Shown here: positions 2,491-62,319 of the stretch, piece after piece | Layout: the number at the start of each line of letters is the position of its first letter | Position numbering within the stretch: the stretch's first letter is position 1 | IMG/VR virus record: IMGVR_UViG_3300005253_000017 | Location: 39,841 to 103,840 of that record | Origin: a virus | Reading direction: 5' to 3' (one strand) | Length of the DNA stretch: 64,000 bases | Made by a program: the position numbers and the translations under genes | Notes under the pieces: generated by a model | What the model saw: only the letters and a program-made list of their open reading frames with translations | Told to the model about the DNA's origin: nothing | The model's database searches: none

Positions 2491-2810
2491 AGGTAAGAAA
2501 GAAAATCAGTAAGAAGGCTTTTATGAAACTGGGGCTTTCATCGGGAGTTAAGGAACTCTTTGAAGAGACATTCAAGGGACAATGGCCAATATCTATCCAA
2601 AGGGCCGTGAAATTTGCCTATGGAACCCTTGGTGATGCTTTCATGGGACTCGAAATAATGAGGTGGGCATTGACGGGGACGCCAGAAGAGGTTCGTTGGC
2701 AATATAGGAATATGGCTATTAAGAATAAACAGAATAATGGTCCCTGTTACTCACGAAACAGAGACATTAGGCGAGCATATAAAAGAAACGATCTAAGGTT
2801 TGCAGGATGA
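2487..2810 (+). CDS. hypothetical protein
   Basis: ATGA-coupled on both sides. Confidence 0.55.
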   Translation: MKVRKKISKKAFMKLGLSSGVKELFEETFKGQWPISIQRAVKFAYGTLGDAFMGLEIMRWALTGTPEEVRWQYRNMAIKNKQNNGPCYSRNRDIRRAYKRNDLRFAG

Positions 2811-8463: not shown

Positions 8464-9203
8464 CAGACAGACCGCAGGTAATGCTGACATTTGACGACGG
8501 AACGGCGGACCATTTCGACGTTGCTCACCTCCTAAACGACTATGGATTAAAGGGTACATTCGGAATTGTTACGGATAAGATAGGCGCTGTTGGGTTCCTA
8601 CTGAGAGAGACCGTATCCCAAGACATGAAGGATATGGGTCACTGCATTTGTAACCATTCTAACACACACTCATGGTCTGGTAACGGTCAACCAAAGCCCG
8701 GCGTGCCCGTCCTTGACAAAGACGGACTGACTGCCGACTACCTGGAGGCCAAGAAGATGCTCAATGATGTGGGTCTCCACGGCGACATCCTGATGCTGCC
8801 TTTCGGTTCTACCAATGTAACCGGACCCGATCACCTCCAGGAACTGAAAGAGGAATTCCGCTGGATACGGATGACGATAGGGACGCCGGTGCCGGAGAAC
8901 CTTGGATGGTGGGCAATGACAGGCGGCAAGAGACTGTATCCAAGTGGATATAATGATCCAGTGATAGGTATTACAGCTGCAGCTGATGTCCGGCATCCCA
9001 ACGCCGTCAGGGAGGCCGTGGACAACGCCATAGCCTGCGGGTCGCTGGCCGTGCTGGTCTACCATAGGGTATGCCACGTGGTGGGCGATACGATGGACGT
9101 GACCTGGAAACGCTTCCAGCAAGACATAGACTACATCGCGGATAGGGCAGGGGCTGGCGAGATTGATTGCGTAACGCCATTGGATTTGGTGGGAGAAAAG
9201 TAA
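8460..9203 (+). CDS. polysaccharide deacetylase (NodB/CE4)
   Basis: LTFDDG, NHSNTH, LPFG, LVYH. Confidence 0.88.
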   Translation: MTDRPQVMLTFDDGTADHFDVAHLLNDYGLKGTFGIVTDKIGAVGFLLRETVSQDMKDMGHCICNHSNTHSWSGNGQPKPGVPVLDKDGLTADYLEAKKMLNDVGLHGDILMLPFGSTNVTGPDHLQELKEEFRWIRMTIGTPVPENLGWWAMTGGKRLYPSGYNDPVIGITAAADVRHPNAVREAVDNAIACGSLAVLVYHRVCHVVGDTMDVTWKRFQQDIDYIADRAGAGEIDCVTPLDLVGEK

Positions 9204-23989: not shown

Positions 23990-24103
23990 GTCTTTGTTTT
24001 ATAAGGGCTTACAAAGAAGGTGAAAAAAGACTTGGTTTTTTTCTATTTTGGGGTTTACTTTTGGCCGATGTAACGTATAATGATAGTAGAGTGAAAATCG
24101 AAT
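23987..24103 (+). promoter_or_regulatory. early promoter copy 1 with upstream imperfect palindrome
   Basis: TTTACT 24054-59, 16 bp, TATAAT 24076-81; repeated at 52248-52362. Confidence 0.8.
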
Positions 24104-24127
24104 AACCTTGAACTAGGAGACAAGGAC

Positions 24128-24598: not shown

Positions 24599-24799
24599 AT
24601 GACGAAACGGCTACAACACGGCGAGATGTGGGAACCCTGCCCTGAATGCGAGCAAGAACCAGTATGCACGCTTTGCGGCTTTTGTGTAAACTGCTGTATC
24701 TGCCCCGATAAGACAAACGGGCAGCCAACAGCAGGGTCACCCATAGCCAAACGGATGAACTTAGCCCTTGGCACGCTTGGGTTTGATAAACCTAAATAA
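24599..24799 (+). CDS. early Cys-rich protein
   Basis: CPEC..CTLCGFCVNCCIC; AAGGAGATAAGGAC RBS. Confidence 0.65.
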   Translation: MTKRLQHGEMWEPCPECEQEPVCTLCGFCVNCCICPDKTNGQPTAGSPIAKRMNLALGTLGFDKPK

Positions 24800-25771: not shown

Positions 25772-26001
25772 CGACAAGCAAAAGATTCTGGATCGGAAGC
25801 CTGTACCAGTCGGCAGCGATAATGTATGTTGATAAAGATGGTCGCTATGACTACTGCCACCCTGATCAACCTGCACGTAGGTTGTGGAAAACTCGCGGTG
25901 GCGCGGAGCGAGCATTGGCTAAGATCGAAGTCGGTCCGGCAAAATCTTGGGGTCGCTGGTTCGTTTATGAAAAACAGGAGACAACCGATGTACGCCTGTA
26001 A
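25768..26001 (+). CDS. early hypothetical protein
   Basis: GGGAGA RBS, ATGA coupling. Confidence 0.55.
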   Translation: MTTSKRFWIGSLYQSAAIMYVDKDGRYDYCHPDQPARRLWKTRGGAERALAKIEVGPAKSWGRWFVYEKQETTDVRL

Positions 26002-26281
26002 CGAATCTCTCTGTGACATAGACTGCGAGGGCAGCACAAACTGTGAATGTTTCCGCTGTGGCTTGCCTGTGTGCAAAACTTGTAGCCATCATATGCCCTA
26101 TCTTCACTTCGGCACAAGGCGCATCTGTCGTTCATGCCGCCTGGAAATGAAAGGGGAAACCAAACGCCTGCAGAAGCGAGTCAGGCAGCTAGAACGAGAA
26201 GTCGTCGAGTTGACCAAGATCAGAGACCTTGCCCGCAAGACCCTTATCAAGTTCGCGGGCATGAAGGAGACAAGGAAATGA
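25988..26281 (+). CDS. early Cys-rich zinc-finger protein with coiled tail
   Basis: AGGAGACAA RBS; CFRC, CKTC, CRSC. Confidence 0.6.
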   Translation: MYACNESLCDIDCEGSTNCECFRCGLPVCKTCSHHMPYLHFGTRRICRSCRLEMKGETKRLQKRVRQLEREVVELTKIRDLARKTLIKFAGMKETRK

Positions 26282-26571
26282 TAGAGCATTCTATCAGCAG
26301 CGAGACTTACTGTTCTGCGGGAGACCTGTATGACGCATGGGCTGACTTCACTCCAGAGCGTTGGCGATATCCCCAGCTCGACACGTTGAAAGACCTGATC
26401 GGTGCGCTTGGATACGGGAGCGTAACGGATTTTCTCAGCAGCAACCCAGACGCGATCAGCGCTGTGGTACGTTCAATTATCAGCCAGATGGCGAGTAGGC
26501 CAGAGTGGAAACAGAGGCTCACCGATGCCATGGAAGTAGATGATGATGCAACAGCAAAGGAGACCTCATGA
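26278..26571 (+). CDS. early hypothetical protein
   Basis: AAGGAGACAAGGAA-ATG. Confidence 0.6.
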   Translation: MIEHSISSETYCSAGDLYDAWADFTPERWRYPQLDTLKDLIGALGYGSVTDFLSSNPDAISAVVRSIISQMASRPEWKQRLTDAMEVDDDATAKETS

Positions 26572-26777
26572 CCCACGAACAGACCCTCAAGGAAGTCGAG
26601 TACCTCAAGGAATGTCTCGACAGGTTCGCCGGGCTATTGCCCCAAGGCAGGACCTCCTCATTCTACGCGGCCTGGCAGAGGTGCCTCCTCAGGTGGCAGC
26701 GGGAGGTCGGGCACGCGGTAGAATATTTCGATTCCAAGGCGGATTCTGATTGCCTTCCATTGAGTCACAAGGTATAA
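26568..26777 (+). CDS. early hypothetical protein
   Basis: AAGGAGAC RBS. Confidence 0.55.
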   Translation: MTHEQTLKEVEYLKECLDRFAGLLPQGRTSSFYAAWQRCLLRWQREVGHAVEYFDSKADSDCLPLSHKV

Positions 26778-26781
26778 GGAG

Positions 26782-27006
26782 ATGGACATGAAATTCCATG
26801 CATCCAATAAAACGTATAAGGAGACGATCATGCGATTCGGCGCCCTCAACAAGATGAACAAACAGTATCACGCACTAGTCGAAATAAGTAACGCAGTGGA
26901 ACGACTGATCTCTTTAATCGACAATGAGCATCTCCGATCAGATTTGCCCACGGCGGTTCGGTCACATTTGGCCGAAATTGAAATCCGTCTGAAGGATGTG
27001 GAATGA
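26782..27006 (+). CDS. early hypothetical protein
   Basis: AAGGAGA RBS. Confidence 0.55.
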   Translation: MDMKFHASNKTYKETIMRFGALNKMNKQYHALVEISNAVERLISLIDNEHLRSDLPTAVRSHLAEIEIRLKDVE

Positions 27007-27010
27007 AACA

Positions 27011-27078
27011 GCGGGACCGGGTTTCTCTTGGCGCTTCGTGGCGTCACTTGTCTCCTTCCCGGTCCCGCACCATTTTTC
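27011..27078 (+). ncRNA. hairpin with anti-RBS bulge, terminator-like
   Basis: 11-bp stem GCGGGACCGGG/CCCGGTCCCGC enclosing CTTGTCTCCTT; followed by ACCATTTTT. Confidence 0.6.
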
Positions 27079-27093
27079 TGAAAGGAGCATATC

Positions 27094-27297
27094 ATGGTAT
27101 TACATATGACAGATGCCGAGTATATCGAAAAACTAGAAGGTACGGAACGTAGACTAAACCGGGACAAGAAGGCATTACTGGAAGCATGCGAGGCTTTTGT
27201 TAAAGCATGGGAGAAATCGCACCAATTGGAAAAGACGGACGTAGCAATGAGAAAAGCCCGTATAGCCATCGCACTGGCTAAGGAGACCACGCCATGA
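27094..27297 (+). CDS. hypothetical protein
   Basis: AAGGAG RBS. Confidence 0.55.
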   Translation: MVLHMTDAEYIEKLEGTERRLNRDKKALLEACEAFVKAWEKSHQLEKTDVAMRKARIAIALAKETTP

Positions 27298-27875
27298 TAG
27301 CAACAGCAACCCCACAGCCCCCGTCCCTTGAGAGCTTCGAGAAGCTCATTCACCAGCAGGCGTTCTACTGCTGGCAACGATTACTGGCCCCCAAAGCGCT
27401 GGAGATGGATGACCTCCACCAAGAGGGGGCCTTGGTCTACCTCCAGGCAACCGGGAAGTGGAGGCCGGATAGGGGTAAGTTCATCACGTTGTTTCACCTC
27501 ATGCTCCAGCACCATTTCGCCAGGATTCTCAGCAGGGCTCACAGGACACATCTGCCGACCTACGAGATGGGGATATCGGATGAGACGGCGGTTCCCTGGT
27601 TCATTGCCGATCCCCCGGATACGCGGGAGGCAACCCGGCGGATTATCGACCACTTCTACGAGATCGTCTCCCGACTGTCCTGGCGGTTCGTGCGGGAACT
27701 TCTCGACCCCTCAGAGGCGTTCCAGGACTGGGAACGAGGGCGATACAAGAACCCCGCCAAATCGCCAAGAACGCGGAAATGCCGGGTAGTCAGGTTCATG
27801 GGCCTGGACCGTTCGGAAGTATCCGCAATACGGCGAGAATTGGCGGTCAAGTTATCGCGGGGATTGGTCGCCTAG
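27294..27875 (+). CDS. sigma-70 region-2-like phage sigma factor
   Basis: EMDDLHQEG..YLQATGKWRPDRGKFITL resembles DL.QEG..GL..A..FDP.RG.F.T. Confidence 0.7.
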   Translation: MIATATPQPPSLESFEKLIHQQAFYCWQRLLAPKALEMDDLHQEGALVYLQATGKWRPDRGKFITLFHLMLQHHFARILSRAHRTHLPTYEMGISDETAVPWFIADPPDTREATRRIIDHFYEIVSRLSWRFVRELLDPSEAFQDWERGRYKNPAKSPRTRKCRVVRFMGLDRSEVSAIRRELAVKLSRGLVA

Positions 27876-27947
27876 GGGCTGAGGAACGCTGAGGATCGTT
27901 TGTAAGCGACGCTAGGGGGAGGATGGGGGTTTTATTCCTAGGCCTTC

Positions 27948-28142
27948 TTAGGGTGGGGCGGTAGGGGCAGATTTAGCGGCCTCATCGAGTTTCGCGCATT
28001 GCTGGCGAGCGACCATCCATCCCTGGCTATTTTTAGCAATAATCTTTTTCTTGTGGGCTTTACACGTATGGCCGAACCCACACTGCCGTTTGTCATCGCA
28101 TAAACGGCAGAGAACAAGAATTCGTTGAATTATCTCATTCAC
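27948..28142 (-). CDS. small Cys-rich protein at end of tail module
   Basis: CRLC..C..C..C; GTGA/ATG coupling. Confidence 0.5.
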   Translation of the reverse strand: MNEIIQRILVLCRLCDDKRQCGFGHTCKAHKKKIIAKNSQGWMVARQQCAKLDEAAKSAPTAPP

Positions 28143-29203
28143 CGTCTGTGTCCTACAGGAACAAGCTGTTGACCCCCATAATTATTGCTGATAGAATTAT
28201 CACTATCGATTAAAGTCCCGTCTGTGTCATCCAAGACAACAAAGCTTTTCTCGCTAAAGTAATAACTTGCCCTCGTCTGACCATTGGCAGTGCATATCCC
28301 TACACCGCCTTGATGATCCCCTGTATCGGAAGCATCATAGGACCAAATTACATTTCCACCGTGATCTAATTTCCAAACACTTGCGTATTCTCCTGCGGCA
28401 CCGGGCCAATCATTTGTACGCCTGGTGAAAACACGAACTCCGTCCGAGTCCGCCCACAAACTATCGACGCTGTTCCCAAACTTCTTGGACCAGTTAACTG
28501 AACCAGTGAGAGAAAACTGCCAAAGTGTGACATTATCGGGAGTACCACCGCCTTCACTGGCCACGTAGTAATAATCACTATAATGCATGCAATCTGTACC
28601 TCTATCGCTCATATCATAAGCCCAGGTCATATCCGAAGTCGCGTCGTCGATTTCCCATACTGTTGCCCAATCAGAATTAGGCAAACTCCAAGCTCTGGCC
28701 CTATATCCAGTCACCAGAATCTTGTCCCCCGCAGGTCTACAAGTTACCCCATTTAACCATACGGCCCCACTTCCCCAATTCCACTTTTCACTAATTGAAC
28801 CACCAGAATATTCTAACTTTCTGAGATCAGAAAGGTGAGAACCAGCCTGACCGGCAACGAAACAATAATCATGAGAATCATCGCTAGGACAAGAACAATG
28901 CAAGCCAACAAATATATTTCCAGAATAATTTGCTAATAGAGTCCCATCGTCTACATCTATTATCCAAGTCCTCCCGCCCGCCTCTATAACATTTGACCAT
29001 ACTTTATCACCATAATGACCAATACTAAGCCAGTAATCATTAGGAAACGGGGGTGGACGGGTCCAACATACAGGGGTAATTGATGGGGGGAGACGGGAAA
29101 GACCTCCATTTATTAATATCTGATTACAGCATCGCCGGTGGACAGCAAACCCTGTCGGAGTGACAAGGAACCTACCCGTAATTGGGGAAAGCATAAATGA
29201 CAT
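28139..29203 (-). CDS. minor tail protein, beta-propeller-like
   Basis: Repeated W-x-[YK] blades (DGTL, VNWSK, VIWSY); position after tape measure. Confidence 0.65.
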   Translation of the reverse strand: MSFMLSPITGRFLVTPTGFAVHRRCCNQILINGGLSRLPPSITPVCWTRPPPFPNDYWLSIGHYGDKVWSNVIEAGGRTWIIDVDDGTLLANYSGNIFVGLHCSCPSDDSHDYCFVAGQAGSHLSDLRKLEYSGGSISEKWNWGSGAVWLNGVTCRPAGDKILVTGYRARAWSLPNSDWATVWEIDDATSDMTWAYDMSDRGTDCMHYSDYYYVASEGGGTPDNVTLWQFSLTGSVNWSKKFGNSVDSLWADSDGVRVFTRRTNDWPGAAGEYASVWKLDHGGNVIWSYDASDTGDHQGGVGICTANGQTRASYYFSEKSFVVLDDTDGTLIDSDNSISNNYGGQQLVPVGHRR

Positions 29204-46976: not shown

Positions 46977-47363
46977 TTATCTCACCATCCATCTCACGGC
47001 CGTCATCGCGTCACTCGCCGTATTGCATGCCGCCCTAAATCTAGTAGCATAGGCTCCCTTGAGTCTCATCCACAACATCCCGGTTGATCCTACTCCTAAC
47101 GCAGTCATATCCGTATCACAACCCAACAGAGGTTCTTGTATACCTGTAGTAAAATCTGACGCTGTACTTGCTACCGTATGAAAGCTCGCGGACGAATGGG
47201 GTTGAACCTGAATGTCGAAGGAGACAAAGACATTTCCCACGTCTGAATTTCCGACTTCAGCCCACAGGTATTCCGCCCCCTCTCGAACTACTATTGTTTC
47301 CAGAACCGTAGTGTCCGAATCTACAGCTACGTCGGAAATTGTTCCCTTCCAGCCTGTAACCAT
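46977..47363 (-). CDS. putative virion protein
   Basis: AGGAGG RBS; 5 SD. Confidence 0.65.
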   Translation of the reverse strand: MVTGWKGTISDVAVDSDTTVLETIVVREGAEYLWAEVGNSDVGNVFVSFDIQVQPHSSASFHTVASTASDFTTGIQEPLLGCDTDMTALGVGSTGMLWMRLKGAYATRFRAACNTASDAMTAVRWMVR

Positions 47364-47861: not shown

Positions 47862-47966
47862 TTACTTACTCCAAGCTCCGTTCATTTCGCAACGGGCCTT
47901 AATCCTAACCGAAGGCGGTAGCCCCCGGATAGGAGACAATATACTCAAGCCAATGGGGAAGCTCTA

Positions 47967-48434: not shown

Positions 48435-48546
48435 TTGCTACTCCTATCGTCCCAATCCCAACCCAGGCTTCATACGTGCTAGCCACTCGGGCGGGTAGGA
48501 CGGCCAGAATCCCGAGTCTTTTACACACTTGCCCATATACAAAATA

Positions 48547-48584
48547 TCAGGGTCGAGGGAAAGGAGACAAAACCTCGACCCTGA
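48547..48584 (-). terminator. perfect 12-bp hairpin with anti-RBS loop, followed by TATTTT
   Basis: TCAGGGTCGAGG-TTTTGTCTCCTTTC-CCTCGACCCTGA on - strand. Confidence 0.65.
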
Positions 48585-48651
48585 CTCCCTCCAAAATCAT
48601 GCATGCCTTCTTCGCACGCATGCCCTCTACTTCTTACTTAACTAACTGCGG

Positions 48652-49178: not shown

Positions 49179-50285
49179 CTACGTGCTAATACCCTTGATA
49201 ACAACAAAGCCCTCGCCATGCTTGATCATTGATCCAACATGTTTTGTAAGTCGGAGCCCAATCTGATCAGTCGTGAAGTACACGTGTTCTGATGTCTTAA
49301 TACTGAAACCCTGTCCATCGCCGATTAAGAGTTCGCTCCAAATACCGCCCACAATATAGCTCTCCCCTGAGGAGGGGCGGTTGGTAACAGAAATCTTGGT
49401 GGTAGTCTTAAGGGGAGCGCCAAAGATGTTATCCAACTTGGCGACCCCGATGCCTGCAGACCCTGTAAGCAGATAGCGACCATTAGCATCTTTCAGCTGG
49501 TCAAGGTCGTTCTGGGTACGGGGGTGCATGACCCACCCGGTGATCTCATTAAACGCATTGAGGCGAACATTGTACATGGCATCCTTGATATTGTCTACGC
49601 CAACAGCGGCCGACAAATCAGTGGACAGCACTCTGGGCTGGTAATAAATGCCCAGCGGACGCTGCCCGCCAGGGCCTTCCAAGAACGCAAGGTCCTCTTC
49701 AAGCGCAAGCTCGCGGGCGAGTTCGTTACGAACTACGTCCTCCATGTTCACTCGTGCGTTTCGCAGAATCTCTGACGACATCTTATACAGACACACCATC
49801 TTTTTGAGTTCCAGGGTATCTCGCCCGAATCCCAATCCGGTATCTTCATTAATTGTTGAGGCTTCGCTTCCCCAACTAATCGCGGGACCTTCGGTGATCG
49901 AATTGAACTCGATCTTGTCAGTTCCCGTGACAGGCATAATTCCAACACCAGGCATGTTCCGTACGACCGCCTTATCCTTGAGCAATCCAATTACACTGGT
50001 GCTCAGAATGGGCGGAACGAACACGCCGCCGAGGTTACCAGCGTCCTGACCCAGGGCCTTGAAGAGCTTTTCCTCTTCAGGGGCCTGCTTCCAAACAAGG
50101 TCACCATAGATAACCCCGCCGATATACTTAATCAGCGAGAGGTTTTCCGCAGTTACTTGAATGTCCGCAGGATCAGTCGTGTCGCCACCGGACTTGCGCG
50201 TTTGTGTTTCCGTCTTCACAGTTGTTGCTTTGGCCAATCCCGACTTCGCAGCTTTGATAAGCTTATCTAGTTCGCTCTTCTTCAC
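49179..50285 (-). CDS. major capsid protein (HK97 fold)
   Basis: GGVFVP, A.WGSE, DLAFLEG.G..RPLGI, WVMHP, LKDANGRYL, IFGAP. Confidence 0.93.
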   Translation of the reverse strand: MKKSELDKLIKAAKSGLAKATTVKTETQTRKSGGDTTDPADIQVTAENLSLIKYIGGVIYGDLVWKQAPEEEKLFKALGQDAGNLGGVFVPPILSTSVIGLLKDKAVVRNMPGVGIMPVTGTDKIEFNSITEGPAISWGSEASTINEDTGLGFGRDTLELKKMVCLYKMSSEILRNARVNMEDVVRNELARELALEEDLAFLEGPGGQRPLGIYYQPRVLSTDLSAAVGVDNIKDAMYNVRLNAFNEITGWVMHPRTQNDLDQLKDANGRYLLTGSAGIGVAKLDNIFGAPLKTTTKISVTNRPSSGESYIVGGIWSELLIGDGQGFSIKTSEHVYFTTDQIGLRLTKHVGSMIKHGEGFVVIKGIST

Positions 50286-50302: not shown

Positions 50303-51457
50303 CTAACCTTCATTTACTTGCTCTTCCATTGCCTCTGCAACTAAACGTTCGGCTTCGTCATCGGGGATTTCTGGGTCATCCTCGGCAGCCTGTCGTGCAT
50401 CCAGTGCAGCAAGTACACCTTCGGTGACCTTCGGGATCAGGCTCTCAGTGATTTCACTGACGAGCTTGGCCGTGTCTACCGAGGGGGCAGTTGCCGGACT
50501 CTTGGCAGGCTCCTCCGTCGTTTGCGTCTGGTTCCCCTCCGAAGTATTTTCTACGGCAGGTTCAGTTTCGTCAGACATTTTATCAACCTCTATCTCTATA
50601 GGTTCTACTTCCTCGGTTTCCGAGGCAAGTTTGATAACTGCTACCATGGCATCCTTCGCATCCTGCGGCAGGTCGTCCATGTACAAATTGATAGTCTCGG
50701 CGTGCTCGGCCAGTCCCTTGGCGAGATCGCCGTCCATCTCAGGGTCAGCCTCAATACCAAGCAGGGTGCTCAGTATCTCCAGGTCATGTTGTTCCGCCTT
50801 TGTCACTCGTTGTGCTCCCTCCAACATCTTCCGGGCCTGTGCCTGCAAACTCTTTTTCTTAGTGGCCGGGATATTCTCCTGAGATATCTTGGCAATCGCG
50901 TCCCTCAAATGGGGTAGGTCAATATTGCCTTCTGCATTCCTCACAGGGAAGTGTCTTAAAGACCGAGGCAAAGTCTTGCCCTCGCCGTCAACCTTGCCGC
51001 CCTTCTCGACATACAGGAACGAGCCATCCGGCAGGTCGTTGACAAACTTGGCAGTCCATTCGGTCTTACCCAGCTTCTTGGGGTCGTTCTTGGCTAGCCT
51101 ATGGACTGTGGAATTCTTAAATCCCCCGTTAGAGGTCCCCTTGTTCTCCGTCACGTACTCACAAACAACTGATACATGCTCGGTCCCAATCGGCCAGTAG
51201 CTCACGTGGAACGATTGAGGGTCGGTCACCTTCTTGCCGTTGACCTTCAGCATGGTGGTCTCCGGCGTGCCCTTGCTCTGGAAGTCAATCGTTAGCTCAA
51301 AGTCCGCCTTGTCTAGTTCCACCGGCATCCCGTCGGCATTTTTGTAGAATAGGAAGGGAGTCAGGTTGGCGGGACGGTCTACAAATGAAACCTCATCAAT
51401 CACAAGGTCTCGAAGTCGCCGCCTTCGTTTTCGTCTCTCGTTTGTCATGCGTGCCAT
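50303..51457 (-). CDS. capsid scaffold with protease-tail motif and DUF6582-like domain
   Basis: LRDLVIDEVSFVDRPAN; NDLPDGSF..RHFP..DLPHLRDA; acidic low-complexity C-term. Confidence 0.75.
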   Translation of the reverse strand: MARMTNERRKRRRRLRDLVIDEVSFVDRPANLTPFLFYKNADGMPVELDKADFELTIDFQSKGTPETTMLKVNGKKVTDPQSFHVSYWPIGTEHVSVVCEYVTENKGTSNGGFKNSTVHRLAKNDPKKLGKTEWTAKFVNDLPDGSFLYVEKGGKVDGEGKTLPRSLRHFPVRNAEGNIDLPHLRDAIAKISQENIPATKKKSLQAQARKMLEGAQRVTKAEQHDLEILSTLLGIEADPEMDGDLAKGLAEHAETINLYMDDLPQDAKDAMVAVIKLASETEEVEPIEIEVDKMSDETEPAVENTSEGNQTQTTEEPAKSPATAPSVDTAKLVSEITESLIPKVTEGVLAALDARQAAEDDPEIPDDEAERLVAEAMEEQVNEG

Positions 51458-51640
51458 AGTCTTGTCCAGATATTGTTCCCCTCACGCCTATGGCACGCGC
51501 CCGGTGGGGAACCGGGGCGTCCGCCAAAAAGGGAACTAACTTCTATCCGAACATTCAAAAACAAAGTCGAACTGGGGTAAATATTTAGGGTAATCTTTAC
51601 AGGGTATGGCTATTAAGGACAAAAATATTTCATTTTTCTC

Positions 51641-52362: not shown

Positions 52363-52386
52363 GCCTACTTTTGAAGGAGACAAGAA

Positions 52387-52641
52387 ATGGCAGACCTCAT
52401 CGACGGACAGTATTGCTTTTACGTTGACGAGACGATGTTCGTAGAAGGTAAGGGCTTTCGCCCAAGCATCATCGTTAAAGGTCAGCAGGGACACTTCCCC
52501 AACGTCGGCGCCGGTGTCAAGCCTTGGTATTGGGGAGAGGATATCAAGACTGCGAGAGCAATCACTGCTGGACGCAACAAACGATTAGGCCTCTCTCAAG
52601 CTGACGTTAACAAGCTCGTAGCAGAGTCCATGAGAACGTAA
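52387..52641 (+). CDS. early hypothetical protein
   Basis: AAGGAGACAAG RBS. Confidence 0.7.
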   Translation: MADLIDGQYCFYVDETMFVEGKGFRPSIIVKGQQGHFPNVGAGVKPWYWGEDIKTARAITAGRNKRLGLSQADVNKLVAESMRT

Positions 52642-52735
52642 GCCGAAACCGGCCCACTCAGTAGTGGCGGTAGGAGTGTAAGTTGCGGGCCGGTCGTCGG
52701 AGGTTCGGTTCCTCCGGCTTGACGAGGCAGCCGAA
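52642..52735 (+). ncRNA. type II hammerhead ribozyme
   Basis: GCC-GAAA-stem III CCGGCCC/GGGCCGG-UC, stem I GTCGGAGG/CCTCCGGC, core UUGACGA, GGC, loop I/3' tail pseudoknot. Confidence 0.85.
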
Positions 52736-52755
52736 AACAGAAGAAGGAGACGATC

Positions 52756-61561: not shown

Positions 61562-61585
61562 ATCATTCTCCTATTCCATTATACG

Positions 61586-61659
61586 TGGGCAGAGGCAGAC
61601 TCGAACTGCCGACAACCGGGATTTTCAACCCCGTGCTCTACCAACTGAGCTACCCGCCC
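61586..61659 (-). tRNA. tRNA-Phe (GAA)
   Basis: GGGCGGG-TA-GCTC AGTTGGTA GAGC, CGGGG TTGAAAA TCCCG, GGCAG TTCGAGT CTGCC, TCTGCCC-A; no encoded CCA. Confidence 0.92.
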
Positions 61660-62245: not shown

Positions 62246-62319
62246 TAGTCAAGACGGGAGTCGAACCCGATATTTCAGGCTTATAAGGCCAGCGTGGTTT
62301 TCCGTTCCACTCCTCGGCA
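62246..62319 (-). tRNA. tRNA-Ile(UAU)-like, degenerate
   Basis: D arm GTGG/CCAC, loop CTTATAA, GGG TTCGACT CCC; four stem mismatches and G at position 8. Confidence 0.6.

Follow-up and report, generated by a model that had tools for sequence, protein, structure and literature searches.

Hairpin loops complementary to an early-gene ribosome-binding tag in an uncultured phage: candidate RNA elements acting on a sigma-like gene and early genes

Introduction

What might be the function of a stable hairpin (here called H1) that lies between two cistrons of an early phage operon, shortly ahead of a sigma-like gene, and that holds unpaired a stretch complementary to the ribosome-binding sites (RBSs) of early genes? 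The locus lies in the 103,840-bp IMG/VR record IMGVR_UViG_3300005253_000017, the genome of an uncultured phage that is recorded as complete, with direct terminal repeats. We analyzed bases 39841-103840 of this record (the window, 64,000 nucleotides in length), and coordinates refer to the window unless they are given as genome positions. The original prediction, made from the letters of the DNA, was that the hairpin could be a small RNA or feedback element that silences many early genes through one shared seed.

A DNA search of a phage collection with 26000-28200 as the query found no close relative among deposited phages. The gene blocks and start regions used throughout rest on a crude, simple gene call made for this analysis. 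The major head protein gene (49179-50285, minus strand) was assigned from PHROG, and metagenome homologues of its product are 36-57% identical. Because some of these capsid homologues are named as proteins of Phycisphaerae MAGs, the host may belong to the planctomycetes and not to the Firmicutes, even though the phage makes strong use of Shine-Dalgarno (SD) sequences; we offer this as a lead only. A tRNA-Phe gene is predicted by both ARAGORN and Rfam (61585-61659, minus strand), and a second tRNA-like match was returned by Rfam only (62246-62319, minus strand, 38 bits).

Results and Discussion

Structure and location of the H1 hairpin

H1 spans 27011-27068 on the plus strand and is recovered from the sequence, from the RNA fold, and by a hairpin scan. 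Its outer stem is perfect over 11/11 bp (GCGGGACCGGG at 27011-27021 with CCCGGTCCCGC at 27058-27068) and GC-rich (10 GC among 11 bp). Within it, a 7-nt 5' internal loop (UUUCUCU) and an 11-nt 3' internal loop flank an inner helix of 7 bp (27029-27035 with 27040-27046) that is capped by the tetraloop UCGU. The 3' internal loop, which we refer to as the anti-RBS loop (27047-27057, plus strand; CUUGUCUCCUU, equivalent to CTTGTCTCCTT), abuts the 3' arm of the outer stem. The perfect stem, the inner helix, and the unpaired segment had all been described in the original prediction, and sequence and fold reproduce them exactly. The fold has an energy of -35.6 kcal/mol (z = -3.3, 200 shuffles), and the mean unpaired probability of the anti-RBS loop is 0.94 in local fold contexts, as expected for an exposed seed; in several longer folds the loop is predicted to pair with the start of the sigma-like gene. 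All folds computed here are pseudoknot-free. Among intergenic hairpins genome-wide, H1 and a second one, H2, rank as the two strongest. Rfam returned no match for H1, either up to E = 10 at 26800-27300 or at the gathering score over the whole window, and an exact-pattern scan for the 3' half of H1 also gave none.

The hairpin begins 5 nt past the stop codon of the last early-cassette gene (26788-27006, plus strand) and ends 25 nt upstream of the ATG of a 67-aa gene of unknown function (27094-27297, plus strand; SD AAGGAG at 27083-88). It occupies the sole sizeable gap in early operon E1, the 87 nt from the stop at 27006 to the ATG at 27094. The sigma-like gene (27294-27875, plus strand, 193 aa) is the second gene downstream, in agreement with the earlier placement of the hairpin near the end of the first early cassette. 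Just upstream of H1, the hexamer at the -10 position is degenerate (TGGAAT) and gives no recognizable promoter, and for this reason a discrete small RNA, one form of the original prediction, is not supported in this genome.

Four nucleotides past the stem there is a run of five U residues (U5, 27073-27077, plus strand), possibly a weak terminator tail or the U-rich leader of the next gene. H1 could accordingly be viewed, like H2, as an intrinsic terminator or attenuator that stops most early transcripts short of the sigma genes and also stabilizes their 3' ends, with a loop sequence that is functionless. We think this unlikely as the full explanation. It draws on the GC-rich 11-bp stem so close to a stop codon, on the unique operon gap, and on the retention of U5 in a relative (L003, described below), and partial read-through would set the sigma level, since the sigma-like gene has no recognizable promoter of its own in the window. 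However, a terminator scan leaves H1 and its U run unlisted, because the U run lies 4 nt past the stem and 36 nt are enclosed. H1 shares with Rho-independent terminators a GC-rich stem after a gene, but it lacks their short loop (3-8 nt) and their U tract at 0-2 nt, having instead a branched interior and a displaced U run.

The overall shape of H1, 58 nt between cistrons with an 11-bp lower helix, an internal loop of 7 x 11 nt, and a 7-bp upper helix, calls to mind another class of RNA signal. The RNase III sites among the early genes of phage T7 consist of two helices around an asymmetric internal loop. It is very unlikely, in our estimation, that H1 is an RNase III-type processing site that separates the early and sigma messages. 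The resemblance is one of shape, and processing provides no reason for the loop to complement an RBS tag or to recur in a simple hairpin such as H2.

An early-gene ribosome-binding tag matches the H1 loop

The complement of the anti-RBS loop, AAGGAGACAA(G), differs from a generic SD sequence and extends beyond it. As AAGGAGACAAG it occurs exactly at 24798, 26264, and 52374, each time 2-5 nt ahead of an ATG, and as TAGGAGACAAG it matches at 10/11 positions at 24114; these are the RBSs to which the loop had been matched originally, and the matches hold. When up to one mismatch to AAGGAGACAAG is allowed, there are 8 matches versus 1.33 expected, a count reached in 0/100 shuffles. Tagged RBSs are found on the plus strand in operon E1 at 24114-24124 (first gene), 24585-95, 24798-808, 25007-16, 26264-74, and 26818-27, and in early operon E2 at 52374-52384 (first gene), 52744-53, and 53281-90.

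The tag is associated with a particular kind of promoter. Host-type early promoters precede E1 (24054-24081, plus strand) and E2 (about 52312-39, plus strand, with the -10 element at 52334-39), and a third lies on the minus strand at genome position ~24073. The three are near-identical, with an A/T-rich upstream region, a -35 element TTTACT, and a -10 element TATAAT, and each leads into a conserved leader and then a tagged RBS of the form (T/A)AGGAGACAAG. RBSs of the GGAGAC type are almost confined to genes behind these promoters and to the sigma-like gene. They precede 8/12 genes of E1, 3/8 genes of E2, and 7/48 genes of the left arm, mostly beside the third early promoter, versus 0/52 genes in the middle block, 1/24 in the late structural block, and 1/18 in the right arm.

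When start regions are ranked by their predicted pairing with the H1 loop, as had been suggested, the top-ranked ones mostly belong to tagged early genes, with duplexes of -14 to -18 kcal/mol versus a mean of -10. On early-gene RBSs the loop would form 10-11 bp at about -17 to -18 kcal/mol, and part of this complementarity comes for free, because a CUCCUU loop matches any strong SD. The complementarity between loop and tag and the specificity of the tag for one class of genes are direct observations.

The genome also contains more than 30 promoter-like motifs that lack a -35 element, gnGTATAAT(A/G)(G/A). They occur genome-wide, are co-oriented with genes, and often lie in the 3' end of the preceding gene (e.g., at window positions 1199, 3241, 18993, 20085, 58763, 59869, and 61583). 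These are probably the middle and late promoters, recognized with the help of the phage sigma-like protein.

A second hairpin with the same loop motif behind the capsid genes

H2 (48546-48585, minus strand) consists of a 13-bp stem and a 14-nt loop, UUUUGUCUCCUUUC (48559-48572), followed by AUUUUGUAU. It lies behind the major-capsid and decoration genes, 66 nt past the stop codon of a 170-aa gene that comes after the major head gene, and its loop has an unpaired probability of 0.94. The loops of H1 and H2 have in common the 10-mer TTGTCTCCTT (that is, UUGUCUCCUU), which in H2 is on the strand opposite to H1 and in sense with late transcription. The chance of a shared 10-mer in these two loops is about 1e-4 (135 position pairs over 4^10). 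As the same 10-mer is displayed in the loop of the other strongest intergenic hairpin, we take the H1 element to be beyond chance. The H2 loop is complementary to the tagged SDs, and the genome thus carries an anti-SD motif in a 3' untranslated region (UTR). H2 is not a hidden RBS, because its reverse strand has no start codon after the motif. At the gathering score, Rfam gave no match to H2 in the window.

With respect to termination, H2 is the stronger case. It sits at the classic site after capsid genes, and its GC-rich stem after a stop codon and its adjacent U-rich tail (AUUUUGU) fit a Rho-independent terminator well. Unlike those of such terminators, the loops of H1 and H2 are large (14 nt in H2) and conserved in sequence. 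A terminator or stabilizer role may coexist with an anti-RBS role, mainly at H2, and would leave the loop unexplained.

Four sense copies of TTGTCTCCTT are present in the genome, versus about 0.1 expected per strand. The two beyond H1 and H2 are exact copies inside open reading frames (ORFs), at 47218-47227 and at genome position 2686-2695 (both minus strand), and neither is in a convincing hairpin. We rejected both as elements, the first for its stem of only 6 bp (z = +0.46) and the second for its position within a 524-aa ORF. A third candidate hairpin (47920-47963) was likewise set aside; it does not display the motif, because its CUCCUA is base-paired to UAGGA. Scanning generically for hairpins with a T run behind them gave output too noisy for use.

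Predicted pairing of H1 with the sigma start region

The assignment of the sigma-like gene rests on a match to Pfam Sigma70_r2 with an E value of 6e-4, below the curated cut-off, and on a separate profile search in which the listed PDB hits are nearly all sigma-factor region 2. The translation start region of this gene (27280-27301, plus strand; SD AAGGAGAC, AUG at 27294) is the predicted long-range partner of 27033-27057 in H1. Of the two predicted helices, one joins 27050-56 to the sigma SD at 27281-87 and the other joins 27037-44 to 27289-96, a segment containing the AUG, giving 7-8 bp over the SD and 8 bp over the AUG. The pairing has a probability of 0.76-0.99 in 6/9 fold contexts, in competition with the local hairpin. 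It requires that the hairpin of about -33 kcal/mol be opened, or else that a pseudoknot form.

In a comparison of start regions the sigma gene ranks 4th of 183, at -29.7 kcal/mol (mean -19.9, sd 4.5), and a shuffle that preserves the anti-SD gives p = 0.04, which is of modest significance. In a genome-wide RNAduplex search with a 45-nt probe, which returned many spurious strong duplexes, the sigma start region fell outside the top 15. In L003, C27042 is replaced by U and G27291 by A, a single compensatory change that preserves this base pair of the long-range helix, and the cognate H1-sigma energies of the window and L003 exceed the cross energies. Overall, these predictions make the pairing of H1 with the sigma start suggestive but not decisive. 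The H1 loop could also form a pseudoknot with the SD of the intervening gene at 27094, but this pairing is weak (6 bp, -8.5 kcal/mol).

H1 and the tag in relatives

Two metagenome contigs (L002 and L003) encode sigma proteins that are 95-96% identical to that of the window. In L003 the local identity is ~88% and the genes on both sides of H1 differ, and the outer stem and both internal loops are unchanged, with all three changes located in the inner helix. L003 has a perfect GGTATAATGG 7 nt upstream of the stem, so in this relative an RNA could start at the hairpin. In L002 the sigma gene is present and no H1 was found within 2.8 kb, which implies that H1 is dispensable in that lineage. A 95%-identical sigma protein, P0001, is encoded on a 103-kb contig, and a scan of genome contigs with P0001 returned no matches.

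The gene at 26788-27006 is missing in L003, where 9056-9073 corresponds to window 26768-27010. Short repeats, GGTATAA.. and ..GGAATGAAACA, occur at the junction and resemble a pair of degenerate copies of a single GTATAAT promoter, the pattern that insertion of a gene cassette into the sigma operon promoter might leave.

Two more distant relatives, G1 and G2, were examined as whole records. In G1, with a sigma protein 38% identical to that of the window, the early-gene cluster is tagged (T/C)AGGAGACAG, that is, CAGGAGACAG, and a single reverse copy of the 9-mer, CUGUCUCCUG, is found in the sigma leader about 80 nt before the sigma SD, directly after a TGTATAAT promoter motif. In the minimum-energy fold of this leader, CUGUCUCCUG is paired with the SD of the sigma gene itself, CAGGAGACA, around a very stable hairpin (z = -3.7). 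Both H1 and the G1 leader thus carry exposed stretches that complement the RBS region of a gene lying further along in their own operon. Tag and anti-tag of G1 depart from those of the window at both flanking positions, and the departures are complementary (ACAA with UUGU in the window, ACAG with CUGU in G1). Cognate tag/anti-tag duplexes reach -17.7 and -20.0 kcal/mol, versus -13.7 and -13.9 for cross-phage ones, a gain of ~4 kcal/mol. Based on these two lineages, tag and anti-tag appear to have changed together.

In relative G2 (sigma 32-34% identical), an 11-bp hairpin with the loop UUCCCGUCCCUUU lies 70 nt before the sigma gene, and no clear early RBS tag was found. Locus L055 is identical to G2 in the sigma region and L057 is too distant, so that neither is informative. 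Neither the G1 nor the G2 hairpin upstream of sigma is followed by a U tract, in contrast to what a terminator would predict, and termination leaves unexplained the shared 10-mer, the class-specific RBS match, the conserved loops with covarying stems, and the co-variation in G1.

We therefore consider sigma a likely cis target of H1, given that H1 lies upstream of the sigma gene in three lineages and that the G1 and window folds predict the pairing. This position and these folds suggest that, for H1, cis control of sigma is at least as likely as trans silencing of early genes. The idea of a base-pairing seed is retained from the original prediction and is strengthened by the early-specific tag, the same loop in H2, the unchanged loop in L003, and the joint change of tag and anti-tag in G1.

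H2 in relatives

Searches of IMG/VR with the single sigma and capsid proteins returned no matches, and a profile built from capsid homologues led to seven IMG/VR loci with 45-53% identical capsid proteins. H2 is syntenic in 7/7 of these relatives: a strong hairpin, whose loop measures 11-16 nt or whose interior is branched, lies 20-80 nt past a gene of ~167 aa that itself comes after the capsid gene. In L004 the loop is UUUGGGUCUCCUUUC, the flanks UUUUGGAGGGA and AUAUUUU are as in the window, and 7/13 stem pairs are changed on both sides. The loops of L007, L009, and L006 are CUUUUGGCCUCCUUUC, CGUUCCUCUCCUU, and UUCCUUCUUCCU, respectively, and GUCUCCUUUC or CCUCCUUUC is kept in the loops of L004 and L007. 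The loops of the remaining 3/7 relatives (L005, L008, and L010) are unrelated and contain no anti-SD. In a covariance-model alignment, 10/13 stem pairs are changed on both sides, a level that 0/500 shuffles reach, and slid controls score far lower. The structures, their conservation, and this covariation are observed, and because the hairpin is syntenic, the stem covaries, and the loop is conserved in some lineages, the alignment indicates that H2 is a structured element that has been conserved, and that its loop is under selection in some members of the family. No consistent cis target for H2-type loops was found across the relatives, and the capsid hairpin loop of G1 (UUCCUUCUUCCU) mismatches the GGAGACAG tag of that phage. 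A further hairpin with the loop UUUUGGUCUUCUUUC was found in record G2 with the H2 covariance model (L045 10432-10494, minus strand, E = 0.013-0.037), away from the capsid genes.

What the relatives share is a large C/U-rich loop (CCUCCUUUC, CCUCUCCUU, UUCCUUCUUCCU, UUCCCGUCCCUUU) rather than a fixed sequence, as might be expected if the pyrimidine-rich loops served not as partners for mRNA but as binding sites for a protein (ribosomal protein S1, an RNase, or an RNA-binding protein of the phage) or as mimics of the 16S rRNA 3' tail. The end of the L007 loop, CCUCCUUUC, matches the usual 16S 3' end. In T4, S1 participates in phage control of SD regions (PMC3014915). We nevertheless regard such a role as improbable, since the loop follows the RBS extension of each phage, UUGU against ACAA in the window and CUGU against ACAG in G1, which a protein would not need, and no candidate protein was identified.

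The motif might alternatively act on DNA or on the other strand, as a minus-strand RBS, a double-stranded protein site, or a recombination scar. On the minus strand, AAGGAGACAA is followed immediately by a GTG with a frame open for at least 49 codons; H1 lies at a mosaic boundary, where the gene upstream is missing in L003; and the 10-mer occurs twice in sense inside ORFs. Such a role is nonetheless highly improbable. A minus-strand gene from the GTG at 27047 was rejected: its SD-to-GTG spacing of 4 nt is shorter than that of any gene of the phage, its frame runs antisense to a real gene, and the different flank in L003 would alter its product there. In H2, moreover, the reversed motif leads to no start codon, and both copies are in loops of covarying stems, which points to RNA.

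A proposed mechanism and its known counterparts

Based on these features, we put the chances at about even that H1 works as an RNA anti-RBS element, damping the translation of sigma and early genes. The stable stem would hold the 11-nt pyrimidine-rich internal loop single-stranded, this loop would pair with the SD tag of the GGAGAC(A) type, and the pairing would block 30S binding. H1 would ride on the early transcript, at its 3' end if U5 terminates some RNA polymerases and otherwise internally in read-through RNA. Because it travels on this transcript, it could reach the sigma start region, 220 nt downstream, in cis (8 bp at the SD and 8 bp at the AUG); early-gene RBSs could be bound either in cis or in trans. 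Late in infection, H2 would provide this anti-RBS abundantly and contribute to the shut-off of early and sigma translation. We infer that the RNAs pair in the cell and that pairing represses translation. Our guess as to the main targets is sigma for H1 and the early genes for H2. Three observations speak for the early genes as targets of the loop as well: it fits the early consensus better, the tag is class-specific, and a second copy lies on the late strand.

A more elaborate version, which we consider distinctly unlikely, is a temporal switch made of RNA only. Early and sigma genes carry GGAGACA(A/G), and the H1 anti-tag would close the sigma start until the tags of early mRNAs titrate H1, so that titration would time the early-to-middle switch; later, H2, an anti-tag on the most abundant late message, would silence the tagged genes.

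Known phage and bacterial RNAs provide partial precedents. In c4 RNA, exposed loop segments base-pair with the RBS region of a gene further downstream and thereby prevent its translation. This antisense RNA belongs to phages P1 and P7 (Rfam RF01695; Citron & Schuster 1990, cited in PMC2864571). It is like H1 acting on sigma, being a phage hairpin RNA from the same operon as its target. In contrast to c4, which uses two loop segments, H1 has one internal loop, gives no match to RF01695, carries a seed that matches about 18 early RBSs, and has a second copy in a late 3' UTR. Among bacterial regulators, RNAIII and RsaE use C/U-rich hairpin loops to pair with G-rich SD regions of several mRNAs. 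RsaE is among the C-rich-loop regulatory RNAs of Gram-positive bacteria covered in PMC6158497. Such RNAs stand alone, with promoters of their own, and target generic SDs, whereas the genome with H1 shows no promoter for it and the H1 seed extends 4-5 nt past the SD into a phage-specific tag.

In the icaR mRNA of Staphylococcus aureus, UCCCCUG, a pyrimidine anti-SD motif in the 3' UTR, pairs with the SD region, which prevents initiation and generates a substrate for RNase III (PMC3868564). The layout is like that of H2, and of H1 if H1 forms a 3' end. Unlike icaR, which acts on its own single SD, the seed here is 10-11 nt long, is displayed by a hairpin, and is matched to the tag of a temporal gene class. 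For the tag itself, the closest parallel is T4, in which RegB with S1 inactivates early mRNAs via an extended early-specific SD motif, GGAGRAYARAA (PMC3014915). The T4 motif and the tag GGAGACAAGGA have the same marking role in translation start regions. In T4 the reader is a protein endonuclease, whereas the only matching reader found here is a complementary RNA loop; it is possible that a RegB-like enzyme also reads the tag in this phage. A literature search on anti-SD loops in phage terminators found nothing relevant. As judged from sequence features, the H1/H2 element belongs to none of the families compared.

Should the pairing prove real, the phage family would use an extended SD tag to mark a temporal gene class, and complementary RNA loops rather than a protein would read it. 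This would be a compact and evolvable way to program the order of gene expression, in which control of sigma is tied to the amount of early mRNA. A tag and anti-tag rule, if true, would predict early genes and regulatory RNAs in uncultured phages, and tag/anti-tag pairs would be orthogonal parts for synthetic translation control.

Other structured RNAs

Several further structures were encountered. An Rfam Hammerhead_II ribozyme match (52641-52736, plus strand; 41 bits versus a gathering score of 37) occupies the space separating the first two genes of E2, immediately ahead of the tagged RBS at 52744. If self-cleaving, this ribozyme would cut the early message between cistrons. Upstream of the capsid gene, a 384-aa gene has its ATG directly after an 11-bp hairpin (51449-51498, minus strand) and no adjacent SD, and GAGGGG lies within the 28-nt loop of this hairpin, which may bring together a split ribosome-binding site. 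Finally, G1 has an intergenic tandem array of five hairpins (L049 18692-19102), with stems of 9-11 bp and loops of 30-32 nt, all of which contain UGUCACCC.
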